Source: an uncultured archaeon (lineage in GTDB: Archaea; Aenigmatarchaeota; Aenigmatarchaeia; QMZP01; JACQNV01). Taken from it: a DNA stretch of 58,939 nucleotides. The position numbers were made by a program, and so were the translations under genes. Position 1 is the first letter of the stretch. Each line of letters begins with the position of its first letter. A model generated the notes under the pieces. It did not search any database. It had not been told where the DNA came from and saw only the letters and a program-made list of their open reading frames with translations. Below, in pieces: positions 33,146 through 34,078 of the stretch. Where the stretch lies: contig CAYYYJ010000002.1 in NCBI GenBank assembly GCA_964476045.1, forward strand, positions 1-58,939, given 5' to 3'.

Positions 33146-33193
33146 GTAGACTGAAGACTCAGGACTTCGGAGAGAACTGCATTTGGTATGAAG

Positions 33194-33510
33194 CGGGCCC
33201 GGTGGGATTTTCAGTCTTGAGTCCTGAGTTTTGAGTATTGTTATTGACCCAACTGTATTTGTATTGTAGTTTTCTTGGATACGGTAGCCTTCTTCTAAAA
33301 GAAGGCTAGCATTTGAACCCACGACCTTCCAGGTTTTCGCTTTTCAGCAAATCACTATCCGGTATCTTCTATCAGCCGAGTTGCACATTTTCTATCATCG
33401 CAGATTTCTGTCTGCTAAATATGCTTTTAACGACATCGTTTTGAAATAAGCAATGCCTATATCAAACAATATTAAAAGCCGGGTGCTCTACCAGGCTGAG
33501 CTACGAGCCC
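33194..33510 (-). tRNA. tRNA-Lys(UUU) with two introns: anticodon-loop (33335..33472, ~138 nt) and T-loop (33207..33310, ~104 nt)
   Basis: Exons GGGCTCG-TA-GCTC..GAGC-A-CCCGG-CTTTTA / A-CCTGG-AAGGTC-GTGGG-TTCAAAT / CCCAC-CGGGCCC-G. Acceptor and T stems pair only when all three pieces are joined; one C-U mismatch in the anticodon stem. Confidence 0.65.
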
Positions 33511-33570
33511 TTTAATTTGAGATTATTGTCTCTGAGTTTATTTAAATAGTAGAAATCAATTAAACAAGAT

Positions 33571-33744
33571 GCCCAGGTTGTGTAGCGGCCTAGCATAGAG
33601 CCCTGTCATGTAAGCTTTTGTCACAAAAGCTTAAGCAAAAAAGGAGCCTAAAATTCTTTCGCTTCGGCTCAGAATTTTTACGGCTTCCACGGAAAAGGCT
33701 TATACGGATCGGCTCTGACCCGGGTTCAAATCCCGGCCTGGGCG
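33571..33744 (+). tRNA. tRNA-Asp(GUC) with ~101-nt intron (33609..33709)
   Basis: GCCCAGG...GAGCC-CTGTCA[intron]C-GGCTC-TGAC-CCGGG-TTCAAAT-CCCGG-CCTGGGC-G. Confidence 0.85.
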
Positions 33745-33778
33745 CCTGTTTTTTAAAATTAACCCTCTTTGAGTAAAT

Positions 33779-34078
33779 CTACTCCCCAAAAATAGCGCCA
33801 AAGCCTGCTTGGGCAGATTCGTCCTGCTTTTGTATAATTTCTAGAATTTTATCTTTGTCGTTTCCTGTAAGCTCTTTCGTTAAATCTTTTAGAAGTTTTT
33901 TTGCTTCTTCCACAGCTTCTTCTGAGCAGTCCATCTCCAGATAGTAGCCTGTCTCTTTCAACCCAAGAGAACCAGCCTCCCTGAAATTGATTGACTGCCT
34001 TGCCAACAGGTCGTTTTTTAGAACAATATCACTGGCCTTCTGGTACTTGTCTTTTTCGAGATAAAATAATAGTTTCAT
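33779..34078 (-). CDS. hypothetical protein with ribosomal-stalk-like C-terminal tail
   Basis: 99 aa ending QDESAQAGFGAIFGE, resembling the archaeal P1/aL12 C-terminal ...AGLGALFG peptide. Confidence 0.45.
   Translation of the reverse strand: MKLLFYLEKDKYQKASDIVLKNDLLARQSINFREAGSLGLKETGYYLEMDCSEEAVEEAKKLLKDLTKELTGNDKDKILEIIQKQDESAQAGFGAIFGE

Follow-up and report, generated by a model that had tools for sequence, protein, structure and literature searches.

How does a tRNA gene whose matching stem strands lie scattered over several hundred nucleotides give rise to a tRNA, and do the long inserts between them serve any role? Archaeal tRNA introns are mostly thought to be functionless. The question is raised here by a tRNA-Lys(UUU) gene of 317 nt on the minus strand (33510-33194) of the window, by which we mean the whole stretch of 58,939 nt that was analysed from an uncultured archaeon of the Aenigmatarchaeota. 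The explanation that we consider rather probable is a working three-intron gene with a guide in the anticodon intron (intron 1) and a T-loop intron (intron 3) that was lengthened by a hairpin module.

The tRNA-Lys(UUU) gene and its support

The sequence-only reading had recognized a tRNA-Lys(UUU) with most of its length intronic, and this was borne out, as the acceptor and T-stem strands find their partners where it had placed them and 243 nt of the 317 nt are intronic (Table 1). The mature form of 74 nt that it had predicted was recovered by computation, the exons of 38, 7, 15 and 14 nt joining into a product that ARAGORN calls tRNA-Lys(ttt). ARAGORN missed the unspliced gene in a one-intron search, and Rfam gave zero matches at the locus, both at the gathering threshold and at E values up to 10. 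Because standard tools overlook this gene entirely, counts of tRNA genes in such genomes come out too low. The region 33180-33900 is spanned without a single difference by contigs from runs of two studies, either of which may be the source sample, and an assembly error is therefore unlikely. Apparent joints in DNA contigs over the locus were discarded as they derived from other organisms or repeats, and L035, the closest related locus of the three that were obtained, had no match to the tRNA pair.

Five tRNA genes were found in the window and, as had been noted, four of them carry inserts. The divergent tRNA-Asp (33609-33709) carries a 101-nt intron at 37/38 with a strict BHB, made of multi-copy modules. 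The tRNA-Ser(GGA) gene (22762-22645, minus strand) does hold the insert ascribed to it, and the length of ~37 nt was revised to 35 nt (22710-22676) in the best BHB reading, which places it in the variable arm and has alternatives.

Table 1. Features of the tRNA-Lys(UUU) locus, in coordinates of the window
Feature	Position	Strand	Basis or remark
Exon 1 (tRNA positions 1-37, 38 nt)	33473..33510	-	sequence
Intron 1, canonical 37/38, 109 nt, strict BHB	33364..33472	-	4 central, 4 exon-side, 5 intron-side pairs
Putative guide: 8-nt antisense to G31-A37 and first intron base	33423..33430	-	conserved in relatives
Kink-turn-like module including spacer	33392..33422	-	sequence, relatives
D'-like box	33419-33416	-	UUUA in this tRNA-Lys(UUU)
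5-bp hairpin	33415-33400	-	within kink-turn-like module
3-nt bulge and C'-like box	33399-33392	-	within kink-turn-like module
Exon 2 (positions 38-44, 7 nt)	33357..33363	-	BHB geometry and relatives; overlooked in the sequence-only reading
Intron 2, 44/45, 30 nt, relaxed BHB	33327..33356	-	4 central, 0 exon-side, 2 intron-side pairs
Exon 3 (positions 45-59, 15 nt)	33312..33326	-	sequence
Intron 3, T-loop 59/60, 104 nt, relaxed hBH-type BHB	33208..33311	-	4 central, 5 exon-side, 1 intron-side pair
Hairpin module with a pyrimidine arm, a purine arm and a further purine tract	33270..33309	-	multi-copy in genome
Three 7-nt tandem units	33211..33235	-	also in the 59/60 intron of tRNA-Asn and at four more sites
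Exon 4 (positions 60-73, 14 nt; CCA not encoded)	33194..33207	-	sequence
Palindromic TATA-like box between divergent tRNA-Lys and tRNA-Asp	33539..33548	.	inferred shared promoter

Three introns and their BHB motifs

A BHB was taken as a central helix of 4 bp with the cuts lying within two 3-nt bulges, together with at least one outer helix of at least 2 bp. Examined junction by junction in this way, the gene has three introns in place of the two first proposed, each with all four central pairs, and an outer helix of at least 2 bp is present on both sides of intron 1, on the intron side of intron 2 and on the exon side of intron 3. Among 20,000 random boundary pairs drawn from the tRNA-Lys region, four central pairs arose in 2.1%, four central pairs with one outer helix in 0.5% and with both in 0.04%. 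What had been read as a single insert of ~138 nt after the anticodon loop resolves into introns of 109 nt and 30 nt flanking a 7-nt exon. The T-loop insert has the predicted length of ~104 nt and its cut moves from after position 60 to 59/60 with an identical product, as cutting at 60/61 leaves one central pair versus four central and five exon-side pairs at 59/60. Removal of the three introns yields a cloverleaf with a single C27.A43 mismatch.

A gene with two introns only, one of 138-139 nt in the anticodon arm and the other in the T-loop, is very improbable, although its product folds too and is called by ARAGORN as a 75-nt tRNA-Lys, the motif-free spliced alignment favoured a single 139-nt insert, and it is the three-intron product that contains the C27.A43 mismatch. 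Against it, a single cut of 138/139 nt in the 37/38 register has two of the four central pairs, the one product-equivalent slide with four has no outer helix, and its product would mispair C29 with U41 and have a variable loop of 6 nt. The 27.43 mismatch is moreover shared by the gene of G001, a genome of the same genus that lacks intron 2, and by the intron-less Lys(CUU) gene L018. Of the three motifs, that of intron 2 is the weakest, with two outer pairs. In G003, a genome of the same family, a 32-nt intron with a matching central helix lies at 44/45, and once it is taken out the flanks join into exactly the sequence that is uninterrupted in G001. Because G003 carries this homologous intron at the same site, a separate 44/45 intron was accepted. 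No further copy of introns 1 and 2 was found in the genome. Judged from its sequence, tRNA-Lys(UUU) is thus a real three-intron gene, and it is probably functional.

The genome (G000; 1.08 Mb, 91.7% complete) yielded one tRNA-Lys(UUU) gene in total; the finding of an intact second copy, named beforehand as what would speak against the locus, was not made, nor was any intron-less copy found. As this is the sole copy and AAA is the most frequent codon (6.6%), the gene is probably in use, although a second copy may lie in the unassembled part. The idea that the locus is a decaying pseudogene with collected repeats, the cell relying on another, unassembled tRNA-Lys(UUU), draws on this incompleteness and on what lies downstream of the gene, an island-like stretch that includes a second exon 4. 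We regard it as highly unlikely, as all stems and the three BHB motifs are intact, the kink-turn-like module shows a compensatory double change within the family (G-C in G001 and G003, A-U here), and 37 of the 39 tRNA genes found are interrupted likewise.

The tRNA set and the splicing machinery

The census of tRNA genes comprises 39 loci, which were obtained from 38 candidates after two were dropped as implausible (C34:4837, C15:18109) and three were added by eye; four anticodons are unsettled. The 37 interrupted loci hold at least 63 inserts with a median length of 82 nt, these counts being lower bounds since motif-free spliced alignment fuses adjacent introns. Cases with more than 90% of tRNA genes interrupted are known from Asgard archaea (PMC11291895), and three-intron tRNAs and intron sharing between tRNAs are reviewed for Thermoproteales (PMC4033280). 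The present genome resembles both (PMC4033280, PMC11291895, bioRxiv 10.64898/2026.10.13.758758) in that a gene may hold as many as three introns, that different tRNAs have related introns and that more than 90% of genes are interrupted. It is unlike them in that the shared sequence is a repeat module found also outside tRNA genes, 40 of 63 inserts having matches at such places. The set includes a tRNA-Ile with anticodon UAU (G000:C1:130538-130862), as is reported for ARMAN archaea (PMC3239211).

Two EndA endonucleases are encoded, one of 403 aa (contig C21) that matches ARMAN-2 epsilon2 (PDB 4FZ2) over residues 18-403 with an E value of 4.5e-96, and the other of 183 aa and of the single-unit type. 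All seven EndA homologues with an organism name, among the at least 120 matches listed, are from Aenigm(at)archaeota. RtcB is also encoded, in a 1486-aa frame (G000:C25:2264-6502) of three pieces that probably includes two inteins. In vitro, the epsilon2 EndA of ARMAN-2 cleaves a 59/60 intron whose motif is of the relaxed hBH type, and ARMAN-1/2 (Micrarchaeota) are similar to the present case in combining such an intron with an epsilon2-type enzyme in the genome and in having pairs of introns at 53/54 and 59/60, which here occur in relatives (PMC3239211). The ARMAN introns tested in that work, of 13 and 25 nt, are far shorter than those of the present genome, and the second, single-unit EndA is a further difference from ARMAN-1/2 as described there.

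A putative self-guide in the anticodon intron

Intron 1 contains, in order, the 8-nt antisense, four bases, the D'-like box, the 5-bp hairpin, the 3-nt bulge and the C'-like box. This combination of antisense and boxes was found in 55 of 301 genomes of the phylum versus 6 for a reversed control, and 48 of the 56 matches that were fetched lie inside Lys(UUU) introns, the other eight being chance matches outside tRNAs. To avoid circularity, genes were also chosen by exon sequence alone, which gave 75 sites, of which 73 are tRNAs and two are not. Perfect antisense of at least 7 bp is present in at least 58 of these 73 genes (2.1 expected) and in 14 of 16 families, the 58 being a lower bound as the rule for intron ends trimmed some introns. 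The first intron base and the guide base facing it form a Watson-Crick pair in 57 of 63 cases (A-U 33, U-A 16, G-C 8) against a mean of 24.6 and a maximum of 37 of 63 in shuffles, and the guide base would be able to pair with the mature A38 in only 35 of 63; the relatives behind the antisense and covariation counts are not independent, yet a change of pair type is seen inside each of the families f2, f5, f10, f13 and f17. Because the guide covaries with the first intron base and can pair with A38 in only those 35 cases, its target would be the unspliced precursor.

A tRNA-Lys(UUU) gene of the phylum could be fitted at 74 of 104 loci, and all 74 have an insert in the anticodon arm. If the guide role is true, a conserved self-guide would explain this retention while T- and D-arm introns come and go. 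The anticodon intron of at least one Lys(UUU) gene, L137 in G086, is without a guide and made of palindromic repeat sequence. Two differing tRNA-Lys(UUU) genes (L069, L141) occur in one genome bin, G182, in which contamination is possible.

The motif was parsed in 65 of the 73 genes into two spacer forms, leaving eight unparsed. It is an established rule for box C/D guides that the target lies at N+5, which gives U34 in the 24 genes with a 2-nt spacer. These keep the second G.A pair in 21 of 24, and their boxes come close to the canonical form, 11 of the 24 having CUGA or UUGA. The 4-nt-spacer form comprises 41 genes, including the one studied here, and the second G.A pair is present in 20 of them, though not in this one. 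The two bases ahead of the box covary with the C' strand in this form (-2:4b U-A 34, C-G 5; -1:3b G-C 31, A-U 8; 5 families), and the target is C32 when counted from the box and U34 under the covarying register, in which the helix is shifted by two. On these patterns U34 is the favoured target in tRNA-Lys, with C32 a serious second candidate; the available part of PMC2584109 makes no decision between the two.

The intron 1 antisense likely guides 2'-O-methylation of U34 (or C32), by analogy with the intron of tRNA-Trp and on the conservation described above. Intron-borne guides are known from tRNA-Trp (PMC4090602, PMC7994747), whose intron a 2014 review presents as a unique example (PMC4090602), and one has been proposed for tRNA-Met of N. 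equitans (PMC3491384). The intron described here is like the tRNA-Trp guide intron in that it lies at 37/38, carries the antisense to its own anticodon loop beside box motifs and has the precursor as target. It differs in its host, tRNA-Lys(UUU), in having one internal C'/D'-like motif and one guide, in its duplex of 8-9 bp with one kink-turn, and in the variant with the two-base register shift. No conserved outer C/D pair was found in intron 1, as the CUGA near its 3' end is not kept among relatives (by eye); a second guide ahead of that CUGA was ruled out on the same ground, and the minimal introns of relatives, of ~44 nt, have no room for an outer box C/D and a second guide (by eye). The self-guide would thus be a well-conserved variant of the tRNA-Trp design and, if true, would set the minimum size of box C/D guide that merits a test.

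The genome encodes fibrillarin, Nop5 and L7Ae. No methylase of the SpoU/TrmJ family was found in the 91.7% of the genome that is covered, though a TrmJ gene may lie in the rest. In a scan of 35 genes the layout pointing to U34 was also found in Glu(UUC), Arg(UCU) and Leu(UAA), besides two doubtful matches (Gly CCC, initiator Met); the scan missed candidates in Met, Trp and Leu(CAA) that were seen by eye. The tRNA-Thr(UGU) intron (G000:C3:9185-9310) also has a D'-hairpin-C' motif, and the bases ahead of this motif could form pairs that span the 3' splice site and point to U39 (by eye).

The three introns may be correct and the antisense and kink motif of intron 1 still not be a methylation guide, serving instead as a structural switch that times splicing, either free or bound by L7Ae, or as a recruiter of another anticodon-modifying enzyme. 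The short duplex, the single degenerate motif, the covarying pairs of the 4-nt form that lie two bases off the standard kink-turn register, and the C'-like box that doubles as the intron-side splicing helix in many relatives would all fit such a role. We nevertheless consider it unlikely, as the boxes of the 2-nt form are near canonical and exactly five bases from U34, and the layout, which is seen again in other U34 tRNAs, agrees with sites that are known guide targets in archaea (PMC7994747). The methylation guide hence remains our preferred role for intron 1.

The T-loop intron and a multi-copy hairpin module

T-loop introns had been called rare, which does not hold in this lineage: the T arm holds 14 of the 63 inserts in the genome, ten of them best placed at 59/60, and 39 of the 74 fitted tRNA-Lys(UUU) genes have a T-arm insert, the 59/60 site applying to 27 of 42 T-arm segments. 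The 59/60 position is not new and the T-loop intron belongs to a known type; most of the interest lies in the self-guide. Intron 3 opens with the hairpin module, and over 105 nt it shares 71% identity with the 59/60 intron of tRNA-Asn. By sequence comparison it appears to be a common 59/60 intron, kin of that in tRNA-Asn, which was lengthened by the hairpin module. This repeat content of intron 3, like the guide-like element of intron 1, had escaped the sequence-only reading.

As many as 38 of the 63 inserts match another tRNA gene and 40 match places outside the tRNA set, some of which may be undetected RNA genes, versus none of 63 for shuffles. A strict finder for the module returned 40 copies (10 in tRNAs, all in sense orientation, 6 in long ORFs and 24 elsewhere) and 1 and 0 copies on two shuffled genomes. 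A loose finder placed it in 37 of the 63 inserts; in 36 of these it lies no more than 10 nt from the 5' end, and 8 of the 37 gave a reverse match as well. The module is presumably mobile. It may be likened to Rickettsia palindromic elements, REP/MITE sequences and intrastrand triplex repeats. The likeness presumably lies in short hairpins that occur in many copies, in spacers and RNA genes as well as in frame within a protein gene. The module is unlike small palindromic repeats in its pyrimidine-purine-purine three-arm layout, in its strong bias to the 5' ends of introns and in that no mobilising enzyme was identified. One Y1 TnpA is encoded in the genome with flanking hairpins unlike the module (by eye) and no TnpB was found, so a link to IS200/IS605 is unsupported.

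Whether the module founded intron 3 by insertion into an intact T-loop bears on how intron DNA reaches tRNA genes. Such founding is conceivable but somewhat unlikely. It would agree with the start of the module at most 10 nt from the 5' end in 36 of the 37 module-bearing tRNA inserts, with the sense orientation of all ten strict matches in tRNA genes, with inserts in 16S rRNA that the module opens too (by eye) and with the lack of a T-arm insert in G003. G001, of the same genus, nonetheless has a 59/60 intron of 19 nt that resembles intron 3 at its ends and lacks the module, and the Trp intron has the module ahead of a guide-like stretch (by eye). Given the short module-free intron in G001 and none in G003, landing of the module in an existing intron, or copying of such an intron, is at least as likely as founding.

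A stronger statement would be that intron 1 is a minimal single-kink-turn self-guide for U34 methylation of tRNA-Lys, kept across this DPANN phylum, including the variant in which the two-base register shift keeps the target fixed, and that a mobile hairpin with three arms, landing just inside 5' splice sites, founded intron 3 or spread it, both roles being undescribed. We put this forward only tentatively, as a whole that is possible and rather doubtful. If true, the mobile hairpin would be an intron-gain route of the kind that recent work on Asgard archaea sought and did not find. Among the non-subscription papers covered, none was found that treats a guide in a tRNA-Lys intron or these hairpin modules in Aenigmatarchaeota.

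Copies of the module and other inserts were also seen at several further places in the genome. The 16S rRNA gene (G000:C7:38700-41512) has several inserts, some opened by the module and others long and apparently protein-coding (by eye). The module lies in frame within a protein-coding gene (G000:C3:22821-22852), and modules are inserted in a stretch that resembles RNase P RNA (G000:C28:8000-8500, minus strand; identified by eye only). A module unit of ~67 nt forms a tandem array across an assembly gap (G000:C4:2300-2950, minus strand).

Proposed processing of the precursor

We infer that RtcB joins the exons of the 317-nt precursor after cleavage at the three BHB motifs, and that the epsilon2-type endonuclease most likely cuts the relaxed sites at 44/45 and 59/60. 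Intron 1 would be old and constrained, its antisense pairing with the anticodon loop and the first intron base in the unspliced precursor, where the single kink-turn motif would recruit L7Ae, Nop5 and fibrillarin for 2'-O-methylation of the anticodon loop. Guide pairing and the splicing helix are mutually exclusive since both need C32-U35, and methylation should precede excision because the guide pairing occupies bases of the splicing helix. Binding of the C/D proteins and methylation would accordingly come first, in cis or between precursors, with refolding and cutting afterwards. Introns 1 and 2 should leave one after the other, as both use the 7-nt exon.

Probable islands behind the lysine tRNA genes

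A stretch of 138 nt, 95% identical between the two, follows both lysine tRNA genes (33193-33072, minus strand; G000:C24:10864-11001). No integrase was found inside either island, the two integrases of the genome lying on other contigs. The 14-nt last exon occurs again 6.9 kb or 1.8 kb further on, between flanks that the two copies have in common (26394-26328, minus strand; G000:C24:12644-12710). A split-tRNA reading of the exon 4 copy at 26341-26328 was dropped, as its flanks are shared with the copy behind tRNA-Lys(CUU) and are like an island end. From these repeats the stretches look like related islands integrated at the 3' ends of the tRNA-Lys genes, and the repeated core behind the lysine tRNA genes starts exactly at the 59/60 splice site.
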